Part shown: in pieces, positions 15,896-55,711 of the stretch
How positions within the stretch are numbered: position 1 is the first letter of the stretch
Layout: each line of letters begins with the position of its first letter
Source: an uncultured bacterium
GTDB taxonomy: Bacteria; Omnitrophota; Omnitrophia; Omnitrophales; Danuiimicrobiaceae
Assembly (NCBI GenBank): GCA_964373885.1
Contig: CAYJWM010000002.1
Span: forward strand, 2,189 to 66,188
Length of the DNA stretch: 64,000 nt
Direction of reading: 5' to 3'
Position numbers and translations under genes: made by a program
Notes under the pieces: model-generated
Told to the model about the DNA's origin: nothing
Databases searched by the model: none
The model's input: only the letters and a program-made list of their open reading frames with translations

Positions 15896-17842
15896 ATGGT
15901 TTTTGTTGTCACCAATCGGATTTTAAGTTATTTGCCGAATCCCGGGTCATCCGCCAGGGATGCTCATGGTGTGCGCATTTCATCGGCAGCTGTACGGCTC
16001 GGGCTTACGGTTTTTTGCAAGGAACCATTTGTGTTTGCTTGTTCTGAGATTGCTTCGTCCCTTCCTTCGGAAGGGACATTTAAAGGAATCCTATTTAGTC
16101 CTGACGCCGCCGGCGTCAGGGCTTCGGTCGCTTCGCGCCCTCGCAATGACGTTGTTGAAGCAATCCGGAACTCTCATTCCAATTCATTGACCAAAACAAT
16201 GGTTCTGGATGTTTTCCCTGGGACTTCCGCATCAGGCCGTCATTTGAATTTGAACATGAAACAATCCTCTTGGACCGAGTGGCATAAGCAAGCTGAAAAA
16301 GAAGCTCAATTTTACAATCTCCTTGAACTTACGGCCGAGAGCTTTCGACTTGAAAGTGATTCTTTGGGAATCAAGCCTCTTTATCGATCAGAGTTGTCTG
16401 GTGGGACAATATTTGCTTCCCGGCTGCGCGATTTAATTAGTATTTTCCCTGAACTTTCCAAACCCATTGATTCCGTCGCTTTATACGGACTTCTGATGCT
16501 GAGCAGTCCCCCGTCTGATCGAACGTTGCATGAGAAAATTCGTCGGACTTCGACCGGCGCTTGTTATGGATGGGATTCGCAGAACGGGCTCCGCATGACT
16601 CGTGAGCGCCGTTTGAAAGCGCCGAGTGTGGACGCCGATTTAGGCATGGAGCGTGCGCAGGATAGAATTCAAGCGGCATTGAGCTCAAGTTTGAACGCCA
16701 GGACCCAGTCGCTTAAACAACCCGTGATCCTCGCCCTGTCAGGGGGTTACGACTCCCGTCTGATCGCCGCATTTTCGAAAGAACTCGGCATTCCAATCAA
16801 TGCCTATACCTATGGTGAAGCACATCACCGCGAGGTTTATATTGCCAAACTTGTCGCTCAAACACTCAAACTTAATCACCGCGTGATTCCTTACGCTCAA
16901 AATAATTTGTTGTCCCGCTTACCTGTTTATTTGGAGACGGTTGAAGGACAGGCCGATTTAGGAACGGCACAAATTGCGAATATGCTTGATCTTGAAACTG
17001 AAGAAGGGTCCCCGCTTCTGATCGGCTTTTTGGGTGAAACGGTGGCGGGTGAGCATTTGGCTTGGTTAAAGGATTCGGACTTCGATGATTTTAACGGAAT
17101 TTCAGAAGGGATTGTGCGCGGATATGCGCATCGGCAGCAGCTCGACGGTCAACCGTTTACCGGAATGGAGCTTTCACGGGAGGCCTACAAAGAGGAAGTT
17201 TCGAAAGAACTGAGAAAGGACTGCCATCCTTACCAATCCTTGATGATTTGGGATTTGGAAAATCGCCAGCGACGCTATATTGGTGCTCATTGTCAAATGC
17301 TCGGTTCGCACTTCGATGTGATTGCTCCGAATTATGATTTGGAAGTGATTGACGCCTGGTTTTCTCTCCCGCGCATTCCGTTGATGAAAAGACGCTTCTT
17401 TCATCAATTGCTCGAACATTGCTTTCCGGACCTCGCCAAAATTCCGCATGCGGCCGAGCCCCATCCGATTATTCCTAATCTTAAGTATCAGCTCAAACTG
17501 TACGGTCGTTCTCAATTCAGCCGGTTGTTTGCAGCTTTCGGGCAGAATGGAAAACATCCGGATATTGACCGCCTCTGGTGTACGTTAACCGTCAAGCAGG
17601 AGGAACATATGGTTTCCCATGTGGTTCGATGTGGAGATAAATTGGAACGGATGTTTGGGATTCGCCCTGTGAGCGGGTTTGAAGGAATGGTTAGGGGAAA
17701 GCCGCAGGCAGTCAGAAATCTCTTCATGGTTGCCAAATATGCCGAATGGCTTCGCCGGGGGAAAACAGCCGTGCCAAGTTTGCCGCCCGCGACCAATTTG
17801 GAACTTGCCGGTTCGGGCATTTATTCGGGAGGGCATGCATGA
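15896..17842 (+). CDS. Asparagine-synthase-like protein with truncated/absent glutaminase domain (start uncertain)
   Basis: PP-loop LALSGGYDSR. Only the tail of the Ntn domain is recognisable (DSLGIKPLYRS, FASRLRDL). ATG 15896 has a strong AAGGAG RBS, but codons about 50-85 are a REP-like palindrome cluster. Alternative starts are 16199 and 16256. Confidence 0.6.
   Translation: MVFVVTNRILSYLPNPGSSARDAHGVRISSAAVRLGLTVFCKEPFVFACSEIASSLPSEGTFKGILFSPDAAGVRASVASRPRNDVVEAIRNSHSNSLTKTMVLDVFPGTSASGRHLNLNMKQSSWTEWHKQAEKEAQFYNLLELTAESFRLESDSLGIKPLYRSELSGGTIFASRLRDLISIFPELSKPIDSVALYGLLMLSSPPSDRTLHEKIRRTSTGACYGWDSQNGLRMTRERRLKAPSVDADLGMERAQDRIQAALSSSLNARTQSLKQPVILALSGGYDSRLIAAFSKELGIPINAYTYGEAHHREVYIAKLVAQTLKLNHRVIPYAQNNLLSRLPVYLETVEGQADLGTAQIANMLDLETEEGSPLLIGFLGETVAGEHLAWLKDSDFDDFNGISEGIVRGYAHRQQLDGQPFTGMELSREAYKEEVSKELRKDCHPYQSLMIWDLENRQRRYIGAHCQMLGSHFDVIAPNYDLEVIDAWFSLPRIPLMKRRFFHQLLEHCFPDLAKIPHAAEPHPIIPNLKYQLKLYGRSQFSRLFAAFGQNGKHPDIDRLWCTLTVKQEEHMVSHVVRCGDKLERMFGIRPVSGFEGMVRGKPQAVRNLFMVAKYAEWLRRGKTAVPSLPPATNLELAGSGIYSGGHA
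16051..16151. repeat. REP-like palindrome cluster inside the 5' part of the third AsnB-like ORF
   Basis: Two hairpins: gtcccttcc-ttc-ggaagggac (16057-16077) and cctgacgccg-c-cggcgtcagg (16100-16120). They are followed by gcttcggtcgcttcgcgccctcgcaatgacg. Confidence 0.65.
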
Positions 17843-18819
17843 ACGTACTGTTAGTGACTCATGAGTTTGAAAATCAGCATAAGTTTCTTCCCAGCGTTAT
17901 TCGAGAACTTGATGCGCTCGGCGAGCAGTTTGGACGGCGTTACCGGGCGCGTCTTGTCCATGATTACACACCGAATCTCAAACATAAATTATGGGCCCTG
18001 GGCCGGCCGACGGTTGTTATTTCCATGGTCCAATTGAGGCACTTTTTTCCCGCTTGGGCCACGGTTTGGTCCCAACAGAATATTGACAAAGTCGCCGAGT
18101 ACAAAGCGCTTGAGCAGGCCGGGATACCGGTCCCGAAATGGACGGCTGTTTACGAAGGCAATACTCCCGATCTCTCCGGATTTGACGATTTTGTGGTGGT
18201 CAAACCCGCTAGAGGGGGATGGGGCGCTTTGGTCCGGATCATGAAGCGTGACAAAGTCAGCTGGAGGCCGCTTAAGGTTGAAAAACTGGGTGTGGTAAGT
18301 GAAGCCATGGTTGTTCAAACCTATATACACACGGGCCCCAGACCTATGAGTTATCGTGTGGGATCCGTTTTTGGGGAGCCCATTTATGCCTGGACGCATA
18401 CGGCTTCGGACAGCAAAACCCCGTTTCCGGAGACAGACGTCAGGGACGAACGCTTTTTCGCAGGAAAGTCAATTGTAGCGACTGGAAAGGGTACGGTCTA
18501 TAAACTGGGCGTGCCGGATGATGTTCTTGATTTTGCAAGGCGGGCCCATCGTGCTTTTCCCACCATTCCGCTGCTGGGAATGGACATTGTCAGATGTCAA
18601 GCAACGCAAAAACTCTATGTTCTTGAAGTCAATGCAACAGGCGATACATTTCATCTTACCTCAAACGCTGGCCAGCGCATACAGCGCGAGATGGGATTTG
18701 ATGCCTTGAAACAATTCGGGGGCGCTCGCGCGGTGGCGCGCGGAATGTACAACCGCCTTAATGAATGGGCAGGGGTGTGTACTCCGGATCTTGAAGAAAA
18801 GGAAATGATTGCCGTATGA
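17839..18819 (+). CDS. ATP-grasp family ligase, paralogue 1
   Basis: Start at ATG 17839 (ATGA overlap). RimK-like motif order: DKVAEYKALEQAGIPVP, FVVVKPARGGWGALV, VVQTYI, YRVGSVFGEPIYA, LLGMDIV...KLYVLEVNATGD. Confidence 0.7.
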   Translation: MNVLLVTHEFENQHKFLPSVIRELDALGEQFGRRYRARLVHDYTPNLKHKLWALGRPTVVISMVQLRHFFPAWATVWSQQNIDKVAEYKALEQAGIPVPKWTAVYEGNTPDLSGFDDFVVVKPARGGWGALVRIMKRDKVSWRPLKVEKLGVVSEAMVVQTYIHTGPRPMSYRVGSVFGEPIYAWTHTASDSKTPFPETDVRDERFFAGKSIVATGKGTVYKLGVPDDVLDFARRAHRAFPTIPLLGMDIVRCQATQKLYVLEVNATGDTFHLTSNAGQRIQREMGFDALKQFGGARAVARGMYNRLNEWAGVCTPDLEEKEMIAV

Positions 18820-19829
18820 ACGTGCTGCTTGTGACTCATGACTATGAACAGCAAAATGAACTTCTTCCGGATGTGATTCGGGAACTGAACACGCTCGGCG
18901 ACAGATTCGGGCGGCGCTATCGCGCGCGTCTTGTCCATGATTATGCACCGAATCTCAAACATCAATTATGGACTTTGGGCCGACCGACCGTGGTGGTTTC
19001 AATGCTGCCGTTGCGCCGATTTTTTCCTTCTTGGGCCACGATTTTGGCCAATGAGGATATTTATAAAGTTCAGGAGTACACGGCGCTTGAGCGCGCAGGA
19101 ATTCCCATCCCAAAGTGGACGGTTGTGCGGCAGGGAGAGGAGCCGGACCTTAGCGGATTTAATGAGTTCGTGGTGGTGAAACCGGCGCAGGGCGGCTGCG
19201 GGGCTCTTGTGAGAATCATGCGCCGCAATCGGGTTGAATGGCGCCCGCTTGAAGTTAAAAAATTTAACTGGAGCCATATGGATTTGATCGCCCAGGAATA
19301 CGTTCATACGGGGCCGTGGCCCGTGAGCTATCGCGTGGGGACTGTTTTCGGAGAGCCGATTTATGCTTGGCGCATTACGGCGGACCGTTCGCGCCGGCCG
19401 TTTGAAGAAGGGAAGATGGATTCGCATTTTTTTGACGGGCGCACGATAGTGTCTTCTGGAAAAGGATGTACTTTTGATTGGGAAGTGCCCCAGGATGTGT
19501 TTGAGTTGGCGCGCGCCCTTCATGAACGGGCGTTTCCCAATACGCCGCTGCTTGGTTCGGACATCATACGAGACGTCCACTCAGGGAAACTTTATGTTCT
19601 TGAAGTAAACGCCAACGGAGATAATTTTCACCTTACCTCCCGAGTCGCCCAGCGAATTAAACGCGAGTTCAATCTCGATTCAAAAGCGCAATTCGGGGGC
19701 GCTCGCGCGGTGGCGCGCGGAATTTACAGGCGGCTGAATCAATTTGTCTCAAACGGGCGGGTAGATGAATTGAACCACTTACAATCTGACGCTGAAAGGA
19801 TGCCATCTACGATGACTACTTCAGTGTGA
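18816..19829 (+). CDS. ATP-grasp family ligase, paralogue 2
   Basis: ATGA overlap with paralogue 1. Same motif set (FVVVKPAQGGCGALV, AQEYV, LLGSDII...KLYVLEVNANGD). A 35-nt stretch at 19689-19723 is identical to 18712-18746. Confidence 0.7.
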   Translation: MNVLLVTHDYEQQNELLPDVIRELNTLGDRFGRRYRARLVHDYAPNLKHQLWTLGRPTVVVSMLPLRRFFPSWATILANEDIYKVQEYTALERAGIPIPKWTVVRQGEEPDLSGFNEFVVVKPAQGGCGALVRIMRRNRVEWRPLEVKKFNWSHMDLIAQEYVHTGPWPVSYRVGTVFGEPIYAWRITADRSRRPFEEGKMDSHFFDGRTIVSSGKGCTFDWEVPQDVFELARALHERAFPNTPLLGSDIIRDVHSGKLYVLEVNANGDNFHLTSRVAQRIKREFNLDSKAQFGGARAVARGIYRRLNQFVSNGRVDELNHLQSDAERMPSTMTTSV

Positions 19830-19859
19830 ACCCATGAGCAAGAAAGAGAGCGTTTTGAT

Positions 19860-20948
19860 ATGAACGTTTTATTGGTACGCACACACGATCCGGACCAGGA
19901 TTCCATATGGCCGGAAGTTGTGAGGGAACTTCGCGGGTTTGGAGTCCGCGCTCGGGCAGTCTGGGATTCGATTCCACACCTAAAACATCGCTTGTGGGCA
20001 CTCGGACGGCCGACCTATGTCATTGCCTTGAAGCCGATAAGGCGATTTGCGCCTTGGTGGGCCGAAAGATTGCAACAGGTGAGATGTGACAAAATTCAGG
20101 AATATGAATTGCTCGATCGCTCAGGCATTCCGGTTCCGAGATGGATCGCCATTCATCAAGGGGATGTGCCCAACCTTTCCGGGTTCGGTGATTTTGTGGT
20201 TACGAAGCCCGCGGCAGGATGCCGTGGGGCATTTGTGCGCGTGATGCGCCGCGGCCGGGTGCGGTGGCGATATTTCAACCTAGAACATAGAAGGGGAGAA
20301 AGTACGGCGATCGTCGTTCAGGAATATATTTATACGGGGTCAAGACCTGTGAGTTATCGCGTTGCCACATGTTTTGGAGAACCTTATTACGCCTGGAGGA
20401 CAACCGCAGCCGCCTCCCGATTACGATTTGAGGAAGGCCTTAAAGGAGCACATTTTTTTGCCGGAAAGAGCATCGTTTCCACCGGGGAAGGTTGCACCAT
20501 GGATCCGGAAGTTCCGTCAGACGTCATTCAATTCGGGACGCGGGTCCATGAAGCTTTTCCGGATATCCCGCTTCTTTCCATCGATATTATTCGTGACGGC
20601 CGTTCCGGCGCACTTTACGTGCTCGAGTTGAACACTGCCGGATTGATTATGGTCGCGACACCACAAAGTATGAGCCGGATCAAACACGATTTTGGCTTTG
20701 ATCCCTGCGTGCAGTTCGGAGGAGCAAAAGCGGTTGCACGCGGAATTTATAACCGGGTCAAGGGACGGCCCTTCGGGCCGCCACCTGCCCGCGGCACGGC
20801 TGCGCCGCCGCGGGCAGGTACTGCTCCGGCTCCCCCGGGCAAGCCCGGGGCATCCTCCGCTGTCAATCGAATGAGCTCAAAGGACTCTGAGCGCGGCGGA
20901 TCCGTTCGGGATTTAAATACAGTATTAGAGGAAGCTTTGGTTCCATGA
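19860..20948 (+). CDS. ATP-grasp family ligase, paralogue 3 (more divergent, with repeat-derived C-terminal tail)
   Basis: MNVLLVRTHD start. Motifs: FVVTKPAAGCRGAFV, VVQEYI, LLSIDII...ALYVLELNTAG. The last roughly 60 aa (PPARGTAAPPRAGTAPAPPGKPG...) are encoded by palindromic repeats. Confidence 0.65.
   Translation: MNVLLVRTHDPDQDSIWPEVVRELRGFGVRARAVWDSIPHLKHRLWALGRPTYVIALKPIRRFAPWWAERLQQVRCDKIQEYELLDRSGIPVPRWIAIHQGDVPNLSGFGDFVVTKPAAGCRGAFVRVMRRGRVRWRYFNLEHRRGESTAIVVQEYIYTGSRPVSYRVATCFGEPYYAWRTTAAASRLRFEEGLKGAHFFAGKSIVSTGEGCTMDPEVPSDVIQFGTRVHEAFPDIPLLSIDIIRDGRSGALYVLELNTAGLIMVATPQSMSRIKHDFGFDPCVQFGGAKAVARGIYNRVKGRPFGPPPARGTAAPPRAGTAPAPPGKPGASSAVNRMSSKDSERGGSVRDLNTVLEEALVP
20783..20850. repeat. 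Two adjacent GC-rich palindromes (acctgcccgcgg family) inside the 3' end of ATP-grasp paralogue 3
   Basis: acctgcccgcgg-N13-ccgcgggcaggt (20783-20819, 12-bp stem) and ccccgggc-aa-gcccgggg (20833-20850). The loop of the first is the reverse complement of the loop at 31895-31909. Confidence 0.7.
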
Positions 20949-28002: not shown

Positions 28003-28988
28003 ATGAGAAACCCAAAAATGCCAAGGTGACCATCGCGGTGGTCCCGCGCGAACGATTCAGTTTGATGGAAACCGCGATCGAGCACATTTACGCGTTTACG
28101 CAGGAACCTTTCGACTTGATCGTGATCGACCCGAAAAGTCCTCCTTTTGTCGGTGAAAAGCTCAAGAAATGGGAAAAAAGAAATCCCAATTGCCGCGTGA
28201 TTCGTTCGGAGCGTTTTCTTTATCCGTATGAGGCGAAAAATCTTGCCGTCAAACACCTTAGTCCCGAAACGGAATGGGTGGTGTTTGTGGATAGCGACGT
28301 GAAGGTGAGTCCTCATTGGCTCAGCTGGTTTTTAAAAGCCGCCGAGGAAACCGGAGCGCGCGTCCTGCATCCGCTTTACTTAATTGAGCAGAAGAAAGAC
28401 ACGGCGATTCACATGGCGGACGGCGAGATGAAGGAATTTAAACGAAACGGAAATATCATCGTTCAGCCGGTCATGAATTATGTCGGCATGAATATTTGCA
28501 ATTCTGCTAATTTCGTAAGACAGAAAAGCGGTTTCCTTGAGTTTCACACCTTTATGGTTCATCGGGAGATACTCAAAGAGATGGGAGATTTCCAGCCGTT
28601 CACTTTAGCCGAAGACGTCAATTTCAGTCTACGGTTAAGGGAGAAGAATGAAAAAATCATTTTTGAGCCGCGCTCCGTGGTTACCTATGTGGCGGGGCCT
28701 CCTTTTGAATCGTACGATCTCCCTTATTTTAAATTCCGCTGGGACCCGAAAGTCGGGGCGGATTCCGTCAACCGGTTAAGCCGTCGCTGGCCGATTAAAG
28801 AGGCCTATTGGGCGGGAAAACTGGAATGGGCCCGTTTTCACCGGAGCCGGGTTTCTCCGTGGTTTGTTCCTTTGTCGTTCGGGAACCGTTTGCTTTCAAA
28901 ATTCCGCGCGGTCGGTTCCAAACTGAAAAACCGCGCCGCGCGGCTTGGATTTGCGGCCCGGCCGAAAGAGGAAGGAAACAATGCCTAA
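27999..28988 (+). CDS. GT-A fold (GT2-like) glycosyltransferase, copy a
   Basis: VTIAVVPRERF start and VFVDSDVKV DXD-like motif. Paralogue of 36597-37604. Confidence 0.6.
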   Translation: MNEKPKNAKVTIAVVPRERFSLMETAIEHIYAFTQEPFDLIVIDPKSPPFVGEKLKKWEKRNPNCRVIRSERFLYPYEAKNLAVKHLSPETEWVVFVDSDVKVSPHWLSWFLKAAEETGARVLHPLYLIEQKKDTAIHMADGEMKEFKRNGNIIVQPVMNYVGMNICNSANFVRQKSGFLEFHTFMVHREILKEMGDFQPFTLAEDVNFSLRLREKNEKIIFEPRSVVTYVAGPPFESYDLPYFKFRWDPKVGADSVNRLSRRWPIKEAYWAGKLEWARFHRSRVSPWFVPLSFGNRLLSKFRAVGSKLKNRAARLGFAARPKEEGNNA

Positions 28989-30030
28989 AGTAAGCGTGAT
29001 TCTCACAACTTATAACCGCACTCATCTGGTTGGAGAAGCCATTGAAAGTGTTTTGGCGCAAACCTATCAGGATTGGGAGCTTATTGTGATGGATGACGGT
29101 TCGGCGGATGGGACAGGGGATATCGTCAAAGCGTTTGCCCAAAAGGATTCCAGAGTCCGCTGTATTCATCGGGAAAATATGGGCATTTCAGCCGTGCGTG
29201 CGCGAAGCATCGCGTTTGCCGAAGGGGAGTATATTACTTTTCTTGACGATGATGACGAATTTGCGCCGGACAAACTGGAACGTCAGGTTTCATTTTTGGA
29301 CGCGCATCCGGAAGCCGGCTTGGTTTATTCGTATGTGGACATGATAGACGCAGAGAAGAAATTGATTCGGAAATGGCCATATCGAGCGGCGGAAAGTTTT
29401 GTGGCGCTGATTAAAGATTGCGTCATTCAGCCGAATGCAACGCTTGTGCGGATGGAGTGTTTCAAAAGACTCGGAACGTTTCGTTTGGATTTCAAAGGCG
29501 GCGATGATTATGAAATGTGGCTCAGGATCGCTAAATTTTACCCCATTGCTTTTTTGCCGTTTACGGCCGGAACTTATCGATGGCATACGTCAAACTTTTC
29601 TCATGATTGGAAGAAACGCTGTTTCAATGACGTGAACGTTTTTAAGGCGGTGCGCGCTTATGATTTATCCTGTGAAGAGCGCAAAGCGGTGACTCAGAGA
29701 GTGATTGAGCTGACGTACACGAAGGGCTCTGACGCGTTTTCCCGCGGGGATTATCGTGACGCTTTATTTTATTTCACCCAGGCGCTCAGGTTCGGCAAGA
29801 CCCTTGGAATTCATATTGCATGGGGACGTTCTAAAAATTGGTTTTATGGGTTGCTGCGGCCGTATGTCGCTTTGGTGCTGGCAGCGGTACTGTTTCCATT
29901 GCGGGGGTCATCCCCGAAATCTTTTATCGGCGATCCCCGATTACCCCGCAAGGGGGCTGCTTCGCTGAAACATTCGGGGACGACGCCTGTCCCGGCCGGA
30001 AATGGTACCGAAGGCGTGCAAAATGCCTAA
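28981..30030 (+). CDS. Glycosyltransferase family 2 with helical-repeat tail, paralogue a
   Basis: Start at ATG 28981 (MPKVSVILTTYNR). Motifs WELIVMDDGSADGT and FLDDDDEF. The last roughly 40 aa are encoded by a 78-nt repeat. Confidence 0.85.
   Translation: MPKVSVILTTYNRTHLVGEAIESVLAQTYQDWELIVMDDGSADGTGDIVKAFAQKDSRVRCIHRENMGISAVRARSIAFAEGEYITFLDDDDEFAPDKLERQVSFLDAHPEAGLVYSYVDMIDAEKKLIRKWPYRAAESFVALIKDCVIQPNATLVRMECFKRLGTFRLDFKGGDDYEMWLRIAKFYPIAFLPFTAGTYRWHTSNFSHDWKKRCFNDVNVFKAVRAYDLSCEERKAVTQRVIELTYTKGSDAFSRGDYRDALFYFTQALRFGKTLGIHIAWGRSKNWFYGLLRPYVALVLAAVLFPLRGSSPKSFIGDPRLPRKGAASLKHSGTTPVPAGNGTEGVQNA
29907..29984 (+). repeat. 78-nt REP/MITE-like structured repeat, copy 1 (in frame in the GT2 3' end)
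   Basis: Matches 54808-54885 at 68 of 78 positions by hand alignment, in the same orientation. Terminal inverted repeats are gtcatccccgaaat / cattcggggacgac, and there are internal hairpins. Confidence 0.8.
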
Positions 30031-30940
30031 GCTTAGCGTTGTCATTTGCACCTATAACCGGGCCGAAAGTTTGTGGGACACGCTTCAGGCGCTTAAGAAC
30101 CAGCGCATCCCCGATGGTTTGGATTGTGAAATTATCGTGGTGGACAACAACAGTAGGGATCGGACAAAAGAGATCGCTTGTCAAGAAAGCCGCGAAAGTC
30201 CGTGGCCAATTCGTTATGTTTTTGAACCCGATCAGGGGGTCAGCCATGCGCGCAATCGCGGAATTTTAGAAGCCAAGGGAGACTTAATCGCGTTTGCGGA
30301 TGACGATATGATTCCCGAGCCGAATTGGATGGATTCGCTTTTAAGGGGTTTTGAGGAGTTTCGCGCCGACTGTGTCGGCGGTCCGGTTCTTCCAATTTGG
30401 GCTCAAGAACCTCCGGCGTGGTTGAGCGATCCAAAACTGAGATTCGGAATGCTCGCGCTCTTGGATCGGGGGGACAAACCGATTGTTGCTGCTAAGACAG
30501 ATTCCAACATCGTATTTGGTGGAAACTCCGCGTATCGGAAATCGCTTTTTCAAGAAGTAGGTTTGTTCCGCACGGATTTGGGCCGCAGGGGCAAAACGCT
30601 CTCGTGCGGTGAGGACAGCGAAATGATCAGGCGCATCATTCATTTGAAAAAGCACGTGGTTTACCTTCCGGGTGCCATCGTGAGACATAAAGTGATGCCC
30701 GAGAGAATGAGTTTAAATTACCTCCGGAAGTGGCATTTCGACGGTGCGCGGTCCACCGCCCGGCTTTCCAAGTTCCGCCGCGGAATTGTTTTGGAACTGA
30801 TTTTGGAATGCGTCAAAAGCGGGTCTGCCGCTTTGATGCGTTACGCATGTTTTGACCGGTTGCGGGCGGTGGGAGCGGAGATTAATTTTTGGTGGAAGCT
30901 GGGAATGCTTGTGGAAATGGTGAATCATGCCAAAAGTTAG
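30023..30940 (+). CDS. Glycosyltransferase family 2 (short type), copy a
   Basis: Start at ATG 30023 (MPKLSVVICTYNR). Motifs IIVVDNNSRDRT and FADDDMIP. Paralogue of 35623-36600. Confidence 0.85.
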   Translation: MPKLSVVICTYNRAESLWDTLQALKNQRIPDGLDCEIIVVDNNSRDRTKEIACQESRESPWPIRYVFEPDQGVSHARNRGILEAKGDLIAFADDDMIPEPNWMDSLLRGFEEFRADCVGGPVLPIWAQEPPAWLSDPKLRFGMLALLDRGDKPIVAAKTDSNIVFGGNSAYRKSLFQEVGLFRTDLGRRGKTLSCGEDSEMIRRIIHLKKHVVYLPGAIVRHKVMPERMSLNYLRKWHFDGARSTARLSKFRRGIVLELILECVKSGSAALMRYACFDRLRAVGAEINFWWKLGMLVEMVNHAKS

Positions 30941-33900
30941 CATTGTGATGCCCACGTACAACCGGGCGGACTATTTAAAGGAAGCCATTGAGTGCGTTCT
31001 CGCTCAGACGTTTACCGATTGGGAGCTTTTTGTGGTGGATGACGGCTCTACGGATCAAACGGAAGAGTTGGTACGTGCGCACGCTTTAAAAGACGAGCGG
31101 ATTTCTTACCTGAAACAGGCCAATGCCGGTTGCAGTGTCGCCCGGAATACGGGACTTCGCCATGCACGTGGGCTGTATGTCGCTTTTCTGGATGATGATG
31201 ACCGCTGGCTTCCGGAAAAGCTTGAAGTTCAAGCGGCTTATTTGGACTCGCGTCCGGAAATCGGATTTTGCTACACGCGCTTTCAAATTTTCCGTTTGGA
31301 AAATGGAAAACGGGTGCTTACAAAAACGTTTCCCGAGTTTCTCACCACGAAGTTTGAGGAGATTCCAGACGTATTTATTGTGCCTTCCACGGTGATGATG
31401 CACAAGCCGCATTTTGACGCCCTGGGCGGATTTAATCCGCGTTACCGGTATGCGGAGGATTTTGATCTATGGCTTCGGTACGCTCAGCGGTGGCAGATTG
31501 GGCCGATTGACCGTGCTTTAGTTTTTACCGTGATGGACAACCGAGAGCACGGAGGGCGCGATCAGATTCTGGTTAATGAAGCTACAAGCGCTATTTTAAA
31601 GAATCTCGAATTGACGCCCCGGTATCGAAATTGTAAGCGGTTGATCCGCGAGGAAATTGCGATCCGCCGTTATGATTCGGGCCGCGAGTACTTGGGTCGG
31701 GCTGACTATTGGCAGGCGCTTAAGTATTTTGCCATGGCTCTTTTCACCGATCCGTTGGTAGGGATTTTCGCCCACCGTCCCGGCGAACCCAGAACGCCCC
31801 GGCGCCGCGGGATGGAATGGGTGCGGCATTTTGGAAAAGCTTATGCGGCTATTTTGGTTTGCGCGCGGAAAGGATTATTCAATACCTGCCCGTGGCGGCG
31901 CAGCCGTGTCACGGGCAGGTGGCAGCGAAGCGAAGCGCAGCCGTCCCTTGACTTAATGGACTTGGCTGTCTTTGGCGGCAAGCCCGCTTTTGGCGAGCCG
32001 CTTCATGTGGGTTGCCCAAACATCGGAGCGCGGAATCGTTTGCAAAACCGGATGGATGACATTTTGAATCGGCGGTGGCTTACCAACAACGGGTGTTATG
32101 TGCGAGAGTTCGAGCAGAGGATTTGTGACGTTCTCGGCGTGAAACACTGCATCGCCATCTGTAATGGCACGGTCGCATTGGAAATCGCAATCCGCGCCTT
32201 GGGTTTGGTGGGAGAAGTAATTGTTCCTTCGTTTACAGCTCCGGCAACCGTTCACGCCCTTTCATGGCTCGGGATTAAACCCGTCTTTTGTGACATTGAT
32301 CCGGAAACGCTTTGTCTAGATCCAAAAGCGGCGGAGAAAAAAATTACTTCAAAGACCACCGGCATTCTTGCGGTTCATTTGTTTGGCAGGCCTTGCGATG
32401 TGAAAGCGCTTGAGGAAATAAGCGCAGCCGGAGGGCTTAAGCTTCTTTATGACTCTGCCCATGCGTTCGGTTGTTCCGTAGGAGGGCGGATGATCGGCAA
32501 TTTCGGCAATGCCGAAGTGTTCAGCTTTCATGCGACCAAGTTCTTAAATGCATTTGAAGGCGGCGCTGTGGTGACGAATGATGATTCGCTGGCCGAGCGG
32601 CTCCGGTTGATGCGTAATTTCGGCTATACCGACTCGGACAAAATTGAGTCTTTCGGAACCAATGGAAAGATGAGCGAGATTTCGGCGGCCATGGGCATTA
32701 CCTCTTTAGAGTCTATGGATGAGTTCGTCAGAAGCAATCGCCTGAATTTCCAATTATATCAAGAAGGATTGGAAGGGATCCCGGGCATTGCGCTGATGCC
32801 GTATGATTTGACCGAAAAGAACAATTTTCAATATGTCGTACTGGATGTCGATGAGGAAGCCGCCAGGATCAGCCGTGATGCACTGATTCAGGTTTTGCGG
32901 CAGGAAAATGTGCTTGCGCGCCGTTATTTTCACCCCGGATGTCACAGAATGCGGCCTTATCTTTCGGTCGAACACTCCGCATCGCTTCCCATCACGGAAC
33001 GCGTTTCGGAGCGTCTTTTACAGCTGCCGACAGGAACTTCAATAGGCCCATCGGAAATTAAAACCGTCTGCGAGATCATCAAAACCGCAGTGGAAGGAGC
33101 CGAGGAAATCTGTGCTCATTTGGAGAGGAAAGCCCGTGTTTTGTCTCAGGCAAATGGGGAACAAAAGACATATCCCGCAGTCAGCATCATTATCCCGACT
33201 TATAACCGCCCGAGTTATCTGGCCAAAGCGATTGAAAGTATCAGGGATCAAACCTACAAAGATTGGGAACTGATCGTGGTCGATGACGGCTCTGTGACCG
33301 GCGACATTAAAACGGTTGTCGAACACTACGCCGAGCAGGATGATCGCATTCGATATATTCGGCGGCCCAATGGGAGCTGGTATCGCGCGAGAAATACAGG
33401 GATTCGAAACGCAAGGGGCAAATATATTGCTTTTTTGGATGATGACGATTACTGGCTGAAAGAAAAACTTGAAAAGCAAGTCGCTTTTATGGACGCTCAC
33501 CCGGAAATTGGGATCAACTATACCTTGTTTCAGGTATATCGATCCCGCAATGGTCGATCGGAACCTGCGAAGGTTTTCCCAAGATGCTCCGTCGCAGGGA
33601 TAGAAGGGTTTTTGGATGCTTTTGTGCCCATTTCCGCCGTGATGATTCGAAGAGCATGCCTGGATGGAATGAGGTGGTTTCCAGCCCGCTACCCGATTTC
33701 GGGAGATTTTGAGTTTTATCTCCGCTTTGCAAGGCACTGGCCCGTAGGTGGCATTGAAGAAATTTTAACGGCGACAACAATGGACGAGCGCGATCACGCC
33801 GGAAAAGACCTCGTTTTGGTCTACCACGATTCAGTGAAAGTGCTTAAGGACCTTAAGGGCACTCGTGATTTTAGCAAATGTCGGTGGCTTCTTACTTGGC

Positions 33901-34154
33901 ACATGGCCCTGCGCTACTATTTATTGGCACGGTTTTTTTTGGATCAAGGAAGCTACTGGAAGGCCGCCGAATATTTTTTGCACGCACTGTTGGCAAATCC
34001 TTTGGTTGGACTGGCGGTCCGCAGGCCCGAGGAAAAGGGGCTTAAGCTTGGGTTTCGAGTGGTCAAGGCTTATGCGGCCGTCTTAGTTTGCGCATGGAAA
34101 GGTTTTTTTTGTTCAGGACGCCATATTTTTCCGGCGGCGGGAGTCAATCAATGA
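30927..34154 (+). CDS. Tri-domain fusion: GT2 - DegT/DnrJ/EryC1-type PLP aminotransferase - GT2
   Basis: Uninterrupted 1075-codon ORF. GT2-A: MPKVSIVMPTYNR, VVDDGSTD, FLDDDDRW. Aminotransferase from about 31956: GTVALEIA, FSFHATK (PLP lysine). GT2-B from about 33170: VSIIIPTYNR, VVDDGS, FLDDDDYW. There is no in-frame stop and no in-frame ATG at the second junction. Confidence 0.85.
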   Translation: MPKVSIVMPTYNRADYLKEAIECVLAQTFTDWELFVVDDGSTDQTEELVRAHALKDERISYLKQANAGCSVARNTGLRHARGLYVAFLDDDDRWLPEKLEVQAAYLDSRPEIGFCYTRFQIFRLENGKRVLTKTFPEFLTTKFEEIPDVFIVPSTVMMHKPHFDALGGFNPRYRYAEDFDLWLRYAQRWQIGPIDRALVFTVMDNREHGGRDQILVNEATSAILKNLELTPRYRNCKRLIREEIAIRRYDSGREYLGRADYWQALKYFAMALFTDPLVGIFAHRPGEPRTPRRRGMEWVRHFGKAYAAILVCARKGLFNTCPWRRSRVTGRWQRSEAQPSLDLMDLAVFGGKPAFGEPLHVGCPNIGARNRLQNRMDDILNRRWLTNNGCYVREFEQRICDVLGVKHCIAICNGTVALEIAIRALGLVGEVIVPSFTAPATVHALSWLGIKPVFCDIDPETLCLDPKAAEKKITSKTTGILAVHLFGRPCDVKALEEISAAGGLKLLYDSAHAFGCSVGGRMIGNFGNAEVFSFHATKFLNAFEGGAVVTNDDSLAERLRLMRNFGYTDSDKIESFGTNGKMSEISAAMGITSLESMDEFVRSNRLNFQLYQEGLEGIPGIALMPYDLTEKNNFQYVVLDVDEEAARISRDALIQVLRQENVLARRYFHPGCHRMRPYLSVEHSASLPITERVSERLLQLPTGTSIGPSEIKTVCEIIKTAVEGAEEICAHLERKARVLSQANGEQKTYPAVSIIIPTYNRPSYLAKAIESIRDQTYKDWELIVVDDGSVTGDIKTVVEHYAEQDDRIRYIRRPNGSWYRARNTGIRNARGKYIAFLDDDDYWLKEKLEKQVAFMDAHPEIGINYTLFQVYRSRNGRSEPAKVFPRCSVAGIEGFLDAFVPISAVMIRRACLDGMRWFPARYPISGDFEFYLRFARHWPVGGIEEILTATTMDERDHAGKDLVLVYHDSVKVLKDLKGTRDFSKCRWLLTWHMALRYYLLARFFLDQGSYWKAAEYFLHALLANPLVGLAVRRPEEKGLKLGFRVVKAYAAVLVCAWKGFFCSGRHIFPAAGVNQ
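31884..31920. repeat. acctgcccgtg hairpin repeat forming the linker between GT2-A and the aminotransferase domain
   Basis: acctgcccgtg-N15-cacgggcaggt (11-bp stem). The loop gcggcgcagccgtg is the reverse complement of the loop of the 20783 element, so this is the same family in opposite orientation. Confidence 0.7.
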
Positions 34155-40944: not shown

Positions 40945-42473
40945 TGATGATGCAAGGAGCGTCCGGTTTTGCCGATTCACCTAAGCCAAAACAAAAAATG
41001 GGGGCCATTTTTTTGATGACCGTCATGGCGTTGGCCTTCAGCTATATTATTTTGAAAGATTTTATTTTTCCTTCTTGGCTGATGATCGCAGCGGTGATGG
41101 TAGGCGGCATGTGTTTGTTCGGAGCCGGCATCAATAAACCGGAAGTGATCATTTACGTGTTGGTGGCCTATTTGCCGTTCAGCAAGGTGCTCGCCGGCGA
41201 TTTCGGCGGGTTCGCCATGGCTTTGAATCTGACGAATTTGCTGATGCTTTTTATCTTTTTGGTATGGATGAGCGGAAAATTTTCCGCCGGCGAACCGCTT
41301 TGGCTTTCCACGCCTTTGAATTTGCCGATCGTTTTCTTTACCCTGGCGGGCTGCGTTTCCGTTATCCGGGGGAATTATTTCGGGTCTGATTATTTTTGGT
41401 TTGCAATCGTGGAATTCAAACGGTGGATCACGCCCATCCTTTTGTATTTTTTGGTGCTCAACACCGTCAAGGACCGCGGCACCATCCGGAATGTGGTGAC
41501 GATTATTATCATCGTTTCCACGGTCGTGGGGCTGATGGCGATTTATGATTACATAGAGGTGGGGGATGTCAGTTTGGAAAAAGCGCGCATCGGCGGCATC
41601 GCGGGGCATTCCAATTCGCTGGCCGCATTTTTCAATTACTATATTTTTCTTCCCCTCGGATTTTTCTTATTGAATGCCCATCGGTCCCGGTATTGGCTCC
41701 TGTGGGTGCCGTTTTTGATTCAATTCCGCGGCATTATGGTCACTTTTTCGCGCGGCGGTTATATCGCTTTCGCTTTCGGTCTGTATGCGATCGCCTTTTT
41801 CCGGCACAAAGCGCTTTTTACTGTGCTCTTGCTCGCCGCTTGTCTGGCGTTTCTGAACCCCATTTTTCTTCCGGCCGGTATCCGCTATCGAATGAGCCAA
41901 ACCTTTACCAAACCCGTCAATTACGCAGACGCGGTCGTGAGTCCCAACCAAACAGGTGAAGCCCTGGACGGAAGCGCCCGCGGCCGCATTGAAATTTGGA
42001 AGGGGGCGCTTCGGATGATTCAGGAACAGCCGGTGTTCGGGGTCGGGTACGGGCTTTTCTTTCCCTTGATTCGTTATTATTGGAAGGGCGGTTTTTCAAT
42101 TGATGCGCACAATACCTATTTGATCATTGCGGCTGAGATGGGGATACCGGCCCTGCTTATTTTTTTGCTCATTATTTTGATCGTGACGTGGAACACCTAT
42201 GTGCTGTATCGAAGGACCAAAGATTCGTTCACCAAGGGGCTTGCCCTCGGGTTTTTGGGCGGCCTTTTCGGATTGATGATGAGCAATATGTTCGGCTCGC
42301 GCCTGGATTCCCAGGAGGTATCCAGTTATTTTTGGATTTTATCCGCTTTGATCATGAGATTAAGGATTTTGGAAGCGAAAGAGGGGAATTTGGCCCTCGC
42401 AGGGGGACGTCCTAAAAAATTGGACGCCGTTTGGAACCGCGGGACAGAAATTCATGAGGCGATGCCATCATGA
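40944..42473 (+). CDS. O-antigen ligase/Wzy-like polymerase family membrane protein, copy a
   Basis: Start at ATG 40944 (TAATG overlap). Polytopic. Wzy_C-like motifs: MVTFSRGGYIAFAFGL and AHNTYLIIAAEMGIPAL. Confidence 0.75.
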   Translation: MMMQGASGFADSPKPKQKMGAIFLMTVMALAFSYIILKDFIFPSWLMIAAVMVGGMCLFGAGINKPEVIIYVLVAYLPFSKVLAGDFGGFAMALNLTNLLMLFIFLVWMSGKFSAGEPLWLSTPLNLPIVFFTLAGCVSVIRGNYFGSDYFWFAIVEFKRWITPILLYFLVLNTVKDRGTIRNVVTIIIIVSTVVGLMAIYDYIEVGDVSLEKARIGGIAGHSNSLAAFFNYYIFLPLGFFLLNAHRSRYWLLWVPFLIQFRGIMVTFSRGGYIAFAFGLYAIAFFRHKALFTVLLLAACLAFLNPIFLPAGIRYRMSQTFTKPVNYADAVVSPNQTGEALDGSARGRIEIWKGALRMIQEQPVFGVGYGLFFPLIRYYWKGGFSIDAHNTYLIIAAEMGIPALLIFLLIILIVTWNTYVLYRRTKDSFTKGLALGFLGGLFGLMMSNMFGSRLDSQEVSSYFWILSALIMRLRILEAKEGNLALAGGRPKKLDAVWNRGTEIHEAMPS

Positions 42474-52844: not shown

Positions 52845-53639
52845 ATGCTGCTTCCTGCGTTAAATTATCACGGGCTCGAGCATTTTTCGGGTGAATACGG
52901 CTGGAATATTTCCGAAAAGCCCTATGTTGTCAATCTGGATGTGTTTGAAAAACAGATGAATTACATCGTGCGCTCAGGATTTTTGTCGCTTTCCCTTGAG
53001 GAAGTGGGCAAATGGCTGAGGATCAAAGGGGAGTACAAAAGACCGATCGTGCTGACCTTTGACGACGGGCATATCAGCCATTTCGAATATGCCGCCCCCT
53101 GTTTGAGACAAAATAAGCTCAAGGCCGTTTTTTTTGTTTCCGCCGGCTGGGTGGGGAAAGAAAACCAGATGAATTGGGAGCATTTGCGGGAACTGGTGCG
53201 CCAGGGATTTGAAATCGGTTCGCACGGGCTGACCCATATTCCGCTGACAAAGCTTTCCAATGAAGCACTGGCATCGGAGCTATGCGATTCAAAAAAGACG
53301 CTGGAAGATCGTCTCGGAATCCAGGTGAAGGGTTTTTCCGTGCCGAGAGGATATTTTTCGGAACGGGTTCGCGGGCAAGCGCTTCGCACCGGATACCGGT
53401 TTGTGTTCACCTCTCTTTTTGATTTCAATTCATTTGCCGAGGACCCTTATTTTCTCAGGCGGCTCGTGGTGACGCGCAGCACTTCTTTTGAGACCTTTGA
53501 CGGCATCATTCACGGAAATCTCGGGTTTAAAAAATGGTGGGAGCGCGCGAAGGAAACGGCGCGGAGCGTGATCAAACCCGAATGGTATGACGCGCTTTCG
53601 GGTTTCAAGCAGGCGCTTTTGCGCGGCCAGAGGGCTTGA
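52845..53639 (+). CDS. NodB-type polysaccharide deacetylase
   Basis: LNYHGL, LTFDDGHISH, GSHGLTHIPL, FSVPRGY. Confidence 0.8.
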   Translation: MLLPALNYHGLEHFSGEYGWNISEKPYVVNLDVFEKQMNYIVRSGFLSLSLEEVGKWLRIKGEYKRPIVLTFDDGHISHFEYAAPCLRQNKLKAVFFVSAGWVGKENQMNWEHLRELVRQGFEIGSHGLTHIPLTKLSNEALASELCDSKKTLEDRLGIQVKGFSVPRGYFSERVRGQALRTGYRFVFTSLFDFNSFAEDPYFLRRLVVTRSTSFETFDGIIHGNLGFKKWWERAKETARSVIKPEWYDALSGFKQALLRGQRA

Positions 53640-53640
53640 T

Positions 53641-54801
53641 ATGATTCAAAAAGCGTTTGAAGTTTTATTTTGGTGTTCGGCCGGAGCGATTGCATATGCT
53701 TATTTTTTGTATCCTATTTTTCTTTTTCTGCTGAGTTTAACGGCCGGGAAGAAGGTCCGAAAAGGTTTTTCAGAGCCTTTTGTAAGCGTGATTCTTTCGG
53801 TGTTTAATGAGGAAAAAATGATACGGGAAAAAATTGAAAATTTGCTTTCGCTTGATTATCCGCGGGATCAATTCGAAATTCTGATCGGCTCCGACGGCGC
53901 TTCCGACCGGACCGATGAAATCATTTCGGACTTTCGAATGCCCCAGGTGCGTTTTTTCCGTTTTGTCTCGAATTTTGGAAAGCCGAATGTGCTGCGCGCG
54001 CTTGTCGAAGAAGCAAAGGGGCCGGTGATCGTGTTCACGGATGCCAGACAGGCGTTTGACTCGAAGGCCGTCCGGGCCTTGGTCGAAAACTTTCATGACG
54101 GAGCCGTGGGATGCGTTTCGGGAGAGCTTTGTTTTCCTGCCGCCGGAGCCCAGAGTACCGGTAAGGGGATGGATCGGTACTGGAGCTATGAAAAATTCCT
54201 GCGGCAGAAAGAAAGCGAGATCGGTTCCATGCTCGGCGCTACGGGCGCTATTTACGCGATCCGAAAGGATTTGTTTCCGGATCTTCCTAAGAACATTTTG
54301 GTGGATGACATGTATATCCCGCTTTCCATTGTCCGGCGCGGCTACCGGGCGGTCTTCGAACGCGAAGCGCGGGCTTATGAAAAACGGCTTTCCCAATCAG
54401 GCGGGGAAGAAATGACGCGAAAAGTGAGGACGCTGGCAGGCAATTATCAAATTTTTTCGTACTTTCCGGATCTTTTTATTCCCTTCAAAAGTCCGATCGC
54501 CTGGCAGCTTTTCTCGCATAAATTTCTGCGGCTTCTGGTCCCTTTCTTCCTGCTTGCGCTTTTTGGTTCTAATTTGTTCCTGCTCGCAAGCCCTTGGTAC
54601 GCTTTCTTTTTTGCCTGTCAGGCGGCTTTTTATTTTCTCGCCCTTTCGGAGGCGCAAAAAGAAAAGAGACCAGCCCGCGTCGGGAGGGGAATCGGCTATA
54701 TTCCGTACACGTTTTGTCTTTTGAATTTTTCGGCTTTTTTAGGCCTTTTGCGTTTTTTGCGGGGGAAACTCAACGCTTCCTGGGAGAAAGCATATGCTTA
54801 A
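53641..54801 (+). CDS. Membrane-embedded GT2 glycosyltransferase (synthase-like)
   Basis: Start at ATG 53641. N-terminal TM; motifs VSVILSVFNEE, IGSDGASDRT, VFTDARQ and GATGAIYAIRK; C-terminal TM helices. Confidence 0.75.
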   Translation: MIQKAFEVLFWCSAGAIAYAYFLYPIFLFLLSLTAGKKVRKGFSEPFVSVILSVFNEEKMIREKIENLLSLDYPRDQFEILIGSDGASDRTDEIISDFRMPQVRFFRFVSNFGKPNVLRALVEEAKGPVIVFTDARQAFDSKAVRALVENFHDGAVGCVSGELCFPAAGAQSTGKGMDRYWSYEKFLRQKESEIGSMLGATGAIYAIRKDLFPDLPKNILVDDMYIPLSIVRRGYRAVFEREARAYEKRLSQSGGEEMTRKVRTLAGNYQIFSYFPDLFIPFKSPIAWQLFSHKFLRLLVPFFLLALFGSNLFLLASPWYAFFFACQAAFYFLALSEAQKEKRPARVGRGIGYIPYTFCLLNFSAFLGLLRFLRGKLNASWEKAYA

Positions 54802-54807
54802 CCCTAA

Positions 54808-54885
54808 GTCATCGCCGAAATCTTTAAGCGGGGATCCCCGACAATCCCACAAGGGGACTGCTTCGCTGAAACATTCGGGGATGAC
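54808..54885 (+). repeat. 78-nt REP/MITE-like structured repeat, copy 2 (between GT2 and exosortase; supplies ATG 54881)
   Basis: gtcatcgccgaaat...cattcggggatgac. Matches copy 1 (29907-29984) at 68 of 78 positions by hand alignment. Confidence 0.8.
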
Positions 54886-55711
54886 ACTTTTTTGGTTCAA
54901 GTGGATGATTCCGCTCGCGATGCTGGGCGTTATTTATTACCCCACTTTTTTGTGGATGATCGACCGCTGGGCCGCGCGCGATTCTTATTTCGGACACGGC
55001 TTCATCATTCCGTTTGTCTCGCTTTATTGGATATTTAAAAAACGCGGGACGCTTTCGCGCTTAAGCCGGAGGGGCGAACAGTGGGGATTTTTGATCGTTC
55101 TGGCGGGCGTTTTTCTTCAACTGGGGGCGAGTTTTTTAAGGATTTACTTTGTTTCCGCTTTTTCTTTGGTTTTGATTTTGATGGGGGGGATTTATTTCTT
55201 GTTCGGGCGGAAAATCGCCCGTGAGGTTTGGTTTCCGATTTTATTTCTTTCGCTCATGATCCCCCTGCCGCTTTTGGCGATTTCGGAGCTCACGCTTCAG
55301 ATGAAATTTTTTGTTTCGGAGATCTCCGCTTTTCTGCTTAATTCGATCGGCATTCGGGCTGTTCGAGAAGGAAGTTATTTGTACACGCCCAATGCGTTGG
55401 TATTGGTGGGGGACCCCTGCAGCGGGCTGAGGTCTTTTCTGGCATTTTTGTGTCTCGGGCTTGTGTTCGCCTATGAAAGCAAATCTATTTTCTGGAAACG
55501 GGTGGTGTTGGTGATCTCGGGACTTCCGCTTGCCATTGGTTCCAATGTGCTGCGGGTTTTTTCGCTCAGTCTTTTGAGTGAAATTTACGGAATGGGTTTT
55601 GTCTCAAAAGGCGTGCATGATGCCTCCGGAATCATTGTGTTTGCGGTCGCTTTTTTTGCGTTCATGTTGATTCGAAAATCCCTTGAAGGATCGAGCCATG
55701 CGATGGGATAA
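54881..55711 (+). CDS. Exosortase (EpsH/Xrt family transpeptidase)
   Basis: WAARDSYFGHGFIIPFVSLY is the exosortase N-terminal motif. Catalytic Cys lies in GDPCSGLRSF, and the Arg region is GSNVLRV. Eight or so TM helices. An alternative upstream ATG at 54794 would add a repeat-encoded 29-aa tail. Confidence 0.85.
   Translation: MTLFWFKWMIPLAMLGVIYYPTFLWMIDRWAARDSYFGHGFIIPFVSLYWIFKKRGTLSRLSRRGEQWGFLIVLAGVFLQLGASFLRIYFVSAFSLVLILMGGIYFLFGRKIAREVWFPILFLSLMIPLPLLAISELTLQMKFFVSEISAFLLNSIGIRAVREGSYLYTPNALVLVGDPCSGLRSFLAFLCLGLVFAYESKSIFWKRVVLVISGLPLAIGSNVLRVFSLSLLSEIYGMGFVSKGVHDASGIIVFAVAFFAFMLIRKSLEGSSHAMG

Follow-up and report, generated by a model that had tools for sequence, protein, structure and literature searches.

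A REP-like palindromic repeat lies in frame within two genes of an exopolysaccharide operon in an Omnitrophota-like genome

In a 64,000-nt stretch of DNA from an uncultured bacterium of the Omnitrophota lineage (contig CAYJWM010000002.1 of assembly GCA_964373885.1; hereafter the window), two genes of one exopolysaccharide/exosortase operon each carry a 78-nt structured repeat that we call element A. Copy 1 lies near the 3' end of a gene for a family 2 glycosyltransferase (GT2) and copy 2 near the 5' end of a gene for an exosortase, and each is open in the frame of its host. Comparison with other genomes shows that element A is a multi-copy structured repeat found in several of them, and that both window copies are lineage-specific in-frame insertions. 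The explanation that we favour, with a probability of about 80%, is that element A is a non-autonomous repeat of the repetitive extragenic palindromic (REP) type that has spread to two genes of one operon, where the peptide it encodes is a tolerated passenger. The two copies and the parts of copy 1 are as follows.

29907..29984, plus strand: element A copy 1, a 78-nt REP-type dimer of 26 in-frame codons (residues 310-335) at the 3' end of the GT2 gene.
29907..29934, plus strand: left REP unit of copy 1, with GTC tag, stem ATCCCCGA, 9-nt loop and stem TCGGCGAT, as delimited from the sequence and the other copies.
29933..29984, minus strand: right REP unit of copy 1 (inverted), with GTC tag and stem (G/A)TCCCCGA...TCGGGGAT around a 33-nt insert.
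29944-29955: inner hairpin CCCC-GCAA-GGGG, within the 33-nt insert of the right unit of copy 1.
54808..54885, plus strand: the 78-nt copy 2 of element A, which follows codon 5 of the exosortase gene in frame.

The two copies (repeat family D6) are identical at 68 of 78 positions, without gaps and on the same strand, as a first-pass annotation of the window had reported. Their likeness stops sharply at GTCATC... and ...GA(C/T)GAC, and the flanks are not shared. With up to three mismatches allowed, a 25-nt core of the element matches only these two copies, against an expectation of 0.00 from shuffled sequences, and no partial copies occur elsewhere in the 64-kb window. The imperfect terminal inverted repeats, GTCATC(C/G)CCGAAAT...CATTCGGGGA(C/T)GAC, and the inner hairpins that had been described are likewise present in both copies. 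Predicted RNA folds of each copy, on either strand, reach -31 to -38 kcal/mol (z = -3.5 to -5.0), and the terminal stem of the window copies measures 12-15 bp.

Both copies follow one order of parts. An initial GTC leads into the stem arm ATCCCCGA, a 9-nt loop and the returning arm TCGG(C/G)GAT; a second ATCCCCGA arm overlaps the left-unit stem by 2 nt and is followed by the 33-nt insert with its CCCC-GCAA-GGGG hairpin; and the 3' end consists of the arm TCGGGGA(T/C) and then GAC. As its sequence presents it, element A consists of two inverted hairpin units, joined in a compact dimer, which have the same 8-bp stem (ATCCCCGA/TCGGGGAT) and GTC heads facing outward. Because this stem is common to both units, the element can adopt a fold of two adjacent hairpins or of a single long stem-loop.

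The evidence that element A has been inserted comes from relatives in which the corresponding sites are empty. For copy 1, the genes concerned are these.

28981..30030, plus strand: GT2 glycosyltransferase gene hosting copy 1 (349 aa; Pfam PF00535, PF10111, PF13641).
30023..30940, plus strand: downstream GT2 gene (MPKLSVVICTYNR...), whose ATG overlaps the stop of the host GT2 at a junction conserved in orthologues.

Copy 1 is held in frame by the open reading frame (ORF) 28945-30030, in which the real GT2 start is at 28981 and the TAA stop (30028-30030) overlaps the next gene; the host GT2 is identical to the deposited protein P0001 (GCA_947085775.1). In the GT2 frame the copy encodes SSPKSFIGDPRLPRKGAASLKHSGTT, and the C-terminus reads ...FPLRG[SSPKSFIGDPRLPRKGAASLKHSGTT]PVPAGNGTEGVQNA up to the stop codon, so placed that the element sits about 14 codons before it. 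The nearest GT2 orthologues, P0002 and P0003 (77% identity), are encoded at the syntenic loci L005 and L006; they are 319 aa long against 349 aa for the window protein, lack the 26 residues and end in ...ALKQNAFGSKFQNA. The terminal QNA and the overlap with the ATG of the next gene (AAAATGCCTAA) are kept in the window, L005 and L006. A second assembly, from a near-identical strain (L004, 99.92% identity over 21,050 nt), has copy 1. Orthologues with the tail (L004) and without it (L005, L006) can therefore be set side by side, as the first-pass annotation had proposed, and the comparison shows copy 1 to be an insertion into the predicted GT2 coding sequence, with the empty site in L005 and L006. 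The earlier description of the element as an in-frame C-terminal tail of the GT2 is thereby supported.

It had also been stated that the element extends the GT2 beyond the point at which its paralogous modules end, and the wider family agrees. Nearly all of the 120 best GT2 homologues are about 300-340 aa long, with variable C-termini, and among these 120 all that align to the C-terminus stop shortly past the last conserved helix; the paralogous GT2 modules stop there as well. An AlphaFold model of the host GT2 is confident to about residue 307, the last helix spanning residues 287-307, and the predicted local distance difference test (pLDDT) score is below 50 for residues 311-349.

The empty sites themselves (L005 10912-10942 and L006 10912-10942; TTCGCGCTGAAACAGAATGCCTTCGGGAG) have CGCTGAAACA and (A)TTCGGG in common with the 3' end of the element. 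In shuffle tests this homology gives p ~0.03 for L005 and 0.25 for L006, and a third test gives no signal. The homology is probably due to chance, and microhomology-guided insertion is marginal only.

A parallel comparison is available for copy 2, which lies at the following junction.

53587..54801, plus strand: upstream GT2-family gene, whose TAA stop (54799-54801) overlaps the exosortase ATG; supported by synteny with L030 and L031.
54794..55711, plus strand: exosortase gene (EpsH family, PF09721) hosting copy 2, with a conserved start at 54794 and GGGAGA upstream.

The first-pass annotation had seen that copy 2 is open but had missed that it lies inside the exosortase gene, as orthology with L030 makes apparent. 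Copy 2 begins 14 nt past the exosortase start codon and 6 nt past the stop of the upstream glycosyltransferase gene. The orthologue in L030, P0122 (89% identity), is without the 26 residues; its sequence opens with ML..., and its ATG, with GGGAGA before it, overlaps the stop of the glycosyltransferase gene upstream (ATGCTTAG). At position 54794 the window has the same ATGCTTAA start/stop overlap, of the form ATGCTTA(A/G) common to both, and the same Shine-Dalgarno-like motif. From this start the N-terminus of the window exosortase reads MLNPK[SSPKSLSGDPRQSHKGTASLKHSGMT]LFWFKW..., and the orthologue reads MLRGFQPWRWVKW...; the deposited annotation, a 305-aa exosortase (P0121), includes the element. 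Comparison with the empty site in L030 shows that copy 2 lies within the predicted exosortase coding sequence. Throughout the syntenic DNA of the relatives L005, L006, L030 and L031 (about 66 kb) there is no element A copy.

Copies elsewhere establish that element A is not peculiar to this operon. An exact 20-mer was sought in 185,579 genomes, one per species and with the source genome not among them, and gave three matches: L001 and L002, both in one uncultured metagenome-assembled genome (MAG), and L003, in a Candidatus Omnitrophota MAG. An exact 18-mer sought in the metagenomes of the Joint Genome Institute gave 23 loci, of which 21 are chance or coding matches and two are real: L013, and L009, whose locus is that of L003. 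The seventh copy overall, L032, was located through a match to the protein P0241. The five extra copies (L001, L002, L003, L013 and L032) come from at least four other assemblies or metagenome samples; four are intergenic, and the fifth (L013) has no real genes called around it.

In all five extra copies the right unit is near-exact, GGATCCCCGA(C/T)(A/T)ACCC...GGGCTGCTTCGCTGAA(A/G)CATTCGGGGATGAC. Left units and spacers vary among copies, the spacer from -2 to 43 nt: the left unit of L001, L002 and L013 reads GTC ATTCCCG(C/A)-loop-(G/T)CGGGAAT CC(A/G), followed by a spacer of 11-12 nt, and in the window copies the spacer is deleted, the units overlapping by 2 nt. The extra copies are found in either orientation relative to transcription and in unrelated contexts. 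Those at L001 and L002 are flanked by minus-strand genes of one direction, to which they are antisense, and are found 6-8 nt past the upstream stop; that at L003 lies 14 nt upstream of the dapF ATG; and that at L032 (395-522 of ENA ERZ27280021 k141_5796463), which has a 43-nt AT-rich spacer between its two hairpin units, lies 8 nt from a tRNA-Val(TAC) gene. When six copies are aligned, a 10-bp terminal stem is retained, and so is an inner hairpin with CG to UA compensation in two pairs, the covariation term being about 0. The spacer-less 78-nt form is unique to the two window copies, and its presence in both indicates spread within the genome.

Two further observations concern these loci. At L032 the gene caller had translated the element together with the tRNA into the 144-aa protein P0241. 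At L001 6707-6765, just upstream of the start of a minus-strand gene, there is a degenerate fragment that resembles the inner hairpin of element A (CCCCACAAGGGGACTGCTCCGCTGA).

It might be argued that no mobile repeat is involved, and that copy 2 arose through one-off ectopic recombination or gene conversion, or is an assembly artefact, given that the window has only two copies, which lie 25 kb from each other within a single gene cluster and point the same way. We find this barely credible, since related copies occupy unrelated loci in at least four other assemblies or samples, the likeness is bounded exactly by the GTC...GAC termini and does not extend into the flanks, and copy 1 is found in two independent assemblies that are 99.92% identical.

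Among known repeats, element A comes closest to REPs of the CGTC-tagged kind. As Di Nocera et al. (2013, PMC3733652) define them, these have an unpaired CGTC or TGTC tag (with CCTC as a further allowed variant), an 8-9-bp stem starting AT, a 4-5-nt loop and a CCA tail. According to the same text they occur mostly as inverted dimers with variable spacers near ORF ends, intragenic CGTC or GTAG REP dimers encode 20-30 aa, and the superfamily includes Neisseria dRS3 and the Rickettsia palindromic elements (RPEs) RPE-4 and RPE-6 of Rickettsia conorii; no dedicated transposase and no REP-associated tyrosine transposase (RAYT) is given there as known for CGTC-type REPs (PMC3733652). Element A is alike in its 8-bp stem beginning AT and, in part, in its unpaired terminal (N)GTC tag and its CC(A) tail; it is alike too in forming inverted dimers with variable or deleted spacers that fold separately or as a single large stem-loop, in lying near ORF ends, and in having an intragenic dimer that encodes 20-30 aa. 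It differs in the window in that the spacer is deleted and the units overlap by 2 nt, and Omnitrophota is not named as a host phylum in the available parts of PMC3733652.

Taken feature by feature, the agreement is uneven. The GTC of the tag does not vary at either end of any copy; the base before it is C or T at most termini of the five extra copies, and at the right ends of the window copies the minus strand gives the tags CGTC for copy 1 and TGTC for copy 2. The stems pair ATCCCCGA with TCGG(C/G)GAT on the left and with TCGGGGA(T/C) on the right, the first pairs being A-T and T-A. CCA or CCG follows the left unit in all five extra copies; the tail of the window copies has merged into the stem that comes next (GATCCCCGA). 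A 4-5-nt loop is absent from the window copies, and a GAAA loop is found only in a related dimer at L001 6316-6381. This dimer is a textbook CGTC-type REP doublet, TTGTC ATCCCCGC GAAA GCGGGGAT CCA ... TGG ATTCCCGC TTTC GCGGGAAT GACAA. On its letters it fits every defining feature of a CGTC REP, and the window element agrees with the definition in its tag core, its stem and its dimer plan. Element A would thus be described as resembling a derived, REP-type, CGTC-like heterodimer and not as a certified member of the CGTC superfamily.

The earlier label of the element as REP- or MITE-like holds in its core, with one qualification. Terminal inverted repeats, one hallmark of a miniature transposable element with inverted repeats (MITE), are present as the 10-bp stem of the six aligned copies, but no target-site duplication flanks any of the seven copies and the empty sites have no duplicated bases, and for this reason element A is not a classical MITE. 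With the GTAG-type REPIN/RAYT systems it has in common an inverted REP doublet, a long hairpin, a non-autonomous nature and the lack of target duplication, but it is without the GTAG tag: no GTAG stands at the element termini, and the annotated parts of the window show neither a RAYT nor a Y1 transposase.

Rickettsia palindromic elements are read in frame within protein-coding genes, as PMC10969869 and PMC3733652 describe. Element A is alike in behaviour, as a palindromic selfish repeat in frame in functional genes whose peptide is compatible with function, and both window copies are in-frame insertions into genes with element-free orthologues. RPE-1 differs in being about 150 bp long, with a conserved peptide and dozens of intragenic copies, whereas element A has 78 nt, two known intragenic copies and a peptide that is not conserved. 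In Coxiella burnetii, QMITE2 gives EnhC a 33-aa C-terminal extension, and QMITE1 and QMITE2 resemble element A in overlapping the 3' ends of functional genes and in donating C-terminal residues and basic peptides (PMC5896051). However, these elements are longer and have direct repeats besides their terminal inverted repeats, and as far as can be judged their sequence is unrelated.

Several other candidate identities were considered and rejected. A template/variable repeat pair of a diversity-generating retroelement does not fit, the differences between the copies not being adenine-specific and the window, in its annotated parts, showing no reverse transcriptase. The termini of integron attC sites are RYYYAAC/GTTRRRY; those of element A are GTCAT/ATGAC. 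An intrinsic terminator was also rejected, terminator scans calling neither copy; copy 1 is without a T-run, and the closing stem of copy 2 encloses 54 nt. The window has 0 matches to Rfam at the gathering threshold, and at a permissive threshold there is a single 15.8-bit chance match to a trypanosomatid small nucleolar RNA.

That a repeat of this kind should be read through as protein needs no special explanation. The genes of the operon overlap by 4-8 nt or lie a few bases apart, so that, in the absence of intergenic space, an element near a junction falls inside a gene, and since 78 nt make 26 codons the frame is never shifted. Sense frames 0 and 1 are free of stops in both copies, as is antisense frame 0, and antisense frame 1 is also free in copy 2 (three of six frames open in copy 1, four of six in copy 2). 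The prior for read-through in both copies is roughly (2/3)^2. Copy 2 is read in the same element frame as copy 1, for which the prior is about 1/2. With a 3n length, two of three sense frames open and overlapping genes, read-through is expected and not remarkable; the first-pass annotation was right that the same frame is open in both copies, but not in calling this unusual.

The same annotation had hinted at tolerance or at co-option of the peptide tail, and tolerance is what the evidence bears out. If the 26-residue peptide had been co-opted as a functional terminal tag of the GT2 and the exosortase, for instance as a basic membrane-association or interaction motif, then the shared reading frame, the basic character of both peptides (net charge +4 in the GT2 and +3 in the exosortase) and the membership of both hosts in the same membrane-associated polysaccharide pathway would be readily understood. 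But the same frame is expected half the time, two sense frames being open, and orthologues function without the segment. Moreover, the ten base differences between the copies are spread over codon positions 1, 2 and 3 as 3, 4 and 3, eight of the ten are non-synonymous, and the peptides are identical at only 19 of 26 residues (seven differ), below the nucleotide identity of 68/78. A profile of 30 columns built from the two peptides found three matches among 1.84 billion representative proteins, of which one is genuine, P0243 (...SVIPAKAGIQKIEIIDPRLPRQGAASLKHSGMTGGDK), itself another translation of the element. Co-option therefore appears very improbable to us.

The mostly non-synonymous changes and the near absence of the peptide from 1.84 billion proteins argue that the tail is tolerated and not co-opted: the peptide is a tolerated passenger at non-conserved termini, with no sign of co-option, and the element-encoded segment is probably disordered. 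A 156-aa concatenate of three frames, compared with a set of 5.8 billion proteins, found only P0241, and as the window's own proteins were not recovered this negative is uninformative. A conserved protein domain was rejected on the profile search and on the mostly non-synonymous differences between the copies. The first-pass annotation had named, as the outcome that would count against a repeat, an element unique to these two sites and part of a conserved domain; in fact at least four other assemblies or samples have related copies, and the peptide is no domain.

A different question is whether element A is kept because its RNA hairpin regulates the operon, as a stabiliser, processing site, attenuator, terminator or modulator of coupling, with the peptide a by-product. 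Both window copies are sense-oriented at cistron boundaries of one operon, they fold very stably, their terminal stem has been conserved, and the inner hairpin shows some compensatory changes. Copy 2, beginning 14 nt past the start codon, is followed by ACTTTTTT, which is absent from the orthologue in L030. In addition, REPs close to the 3' ends of ORFs are thought to work at the level of RNA, according to PMC3733652. These points have to be set against the antisense orientation of the L001 and L002 copies relative to their flanking genes, the unrelated contexts of others (dapF, tRNA-Val), a covariation term near 0, the lack of an Rfam match and of a T-run in copy 1, and the fact that in close relatives the same operon does without the element. 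On balance we consider regulation through the RNA unlikely.

Apart from this, we note that ACTTTTTTGG follows copy 2 at 54886-54895, inside the exosortase coding sequence, with a T-run 2 nt past the terminal stem. Copy 2 and its T-run are terminator-like in look, and a simple terminator scan makes no call.

Under the explanation that we favour, in which element A is a non-autonomous REP-type repeat with a passenger peptide, the element would have spread to two sites in one Omnitrophota-like genome by a mobilisation that leaves no duplication. Both landing sites lie at gene junctions of the giant exopolysaccharide/exosortase operon, and as neighbouring genes there share 4-8 nt, insertions at such junctions had to fall in coding sequence. 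A stop-free 78-nt segment would leave the host frames and the start/stop overlaps intact while each protein gained a basic segment of 26 residues, and presumably an insertion survives only if it preserves the ORFs and the start/stop overlaps. Any function would more likely reside at the DNA or RNA level, for example in a stable hairpin within the polycistronic mRNA, which may affect mRNA stability or translational coupling.

A number of points weigh against this explanation. Only two copies of element A are visible in the 64-kb window, and the subfamily is rare, exact-word scans of very large collections having given few relatives. Neither the syntenic loci nor the annotated parts of the window show a transposase, and no conserved motif could be recognised in the flanks of the insertions. 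As a CGTC-like REP the window element is atypical in its loops, of 9 nt and 33 nt (structured) instead of 4-5 nt, and in its left tags, GGTC in copy 1 and AGTC in copy 2 instead of CGTC or TGTC. The exosortase may start at an internal ATG, either at 54881 within the terminal stem or at 54905, although neither has a well-spaced purine-rich motif before it. We infer the translation of the element-encoded segments from ORF continuity, and the low pLDDT of the GT2 tail is weak evidence because the tail columns have no aligned homologues.

If the explanation holds, a known phenomenon, the in-frame presence of REP- or RPE-type repeats in functional genes, extends to an uncultured phylum related to the Planctomycetes, Verrucomicrobia and Chlamydiae (PVC) group. 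Both insertions offer unusually clean comparisons of a filled with an empty site, and the way in which selfish repeats become coding is simply explained by the lack of intergenic space, the 3n length and the stop-free frames. No new mechanism is opened by what is a clean but ordinary case. There is also a practical consequence for annotation, in that 26 element-derived residues already stand in the databases as parts of the 349-aa GT2 (P0001) and the 305-aa exosortase (P0121), which is a warning against taking such tails for domains.

The window holds a second palindromic family, element B, with the core GTCAAGGGACGGC...CCACCTGCCCG(C/T)G(G/A)CACGGCTGCGCCGCC(G/A)CGGGCAGGTA(C/T)TG, and beyond families A and B no further close hairpin elements were found in it. 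Its two copies are as follows.

About 20759-20863: element B copy B1, an in-frame segment of 105 nt (35 codons) in ORF 19860-20948, whose stop is 28 codons further on.
About 31876-31957, minus strand: element B copy B2, with GT2 module 1 ending on one side of it and the ATG (31956) of a DegT-like module on the other.

B1 is absent from the syntenic locus L005, which is otherwise 92-95% identical. B2 is read through as the linker NTCPWRRSRVTGRWQRSEAQPSLDL in a 1075-aa ORF (30927-34154), and an out-of-frame TAATG at this copy resembles a former stop/start overlap. B2 may represent a gene fusion caused by the element, putatively joining a GT2 module and a DegT-type aminotransferase through a 25-residue (75-nt) linker. 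All four palindromic insertions, A and B together, lie within about 90 nt of a gene junction. One could go further and suppose that palindromic repeats A and B are captured preferentially at cistron junctions of those Omnitrophota whose operons overlap tightly, where they act as donors of termini and linkers, cause gene fusion and tune coupling through their hairpins. This is a long shot in our estimation; if true, palindromic repeats would be a recurrent engine of protein and operon evolution and not passive passengers.

Two sets of duplicated genes were also seen in the window. The gene that carries B1 is the third of three tandem paralogous genes at 17746-20948, which have a period of 977-1023 nt (repeat families D1, D4 and D7); the second and third match genes with ATP-grasp Pfam hits in L004 and L005. 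Farther downstream, 41141-42350 and 48359-49544 are direct repeats of 70-80% identity about 7.2 kb apart (D5, D9 and D13). These repeats indicate a duplicated operon gene, and the downstream duplicate is, by synteny with L030, a Wzy_C/O-antigen-ligase-like membrane protein.

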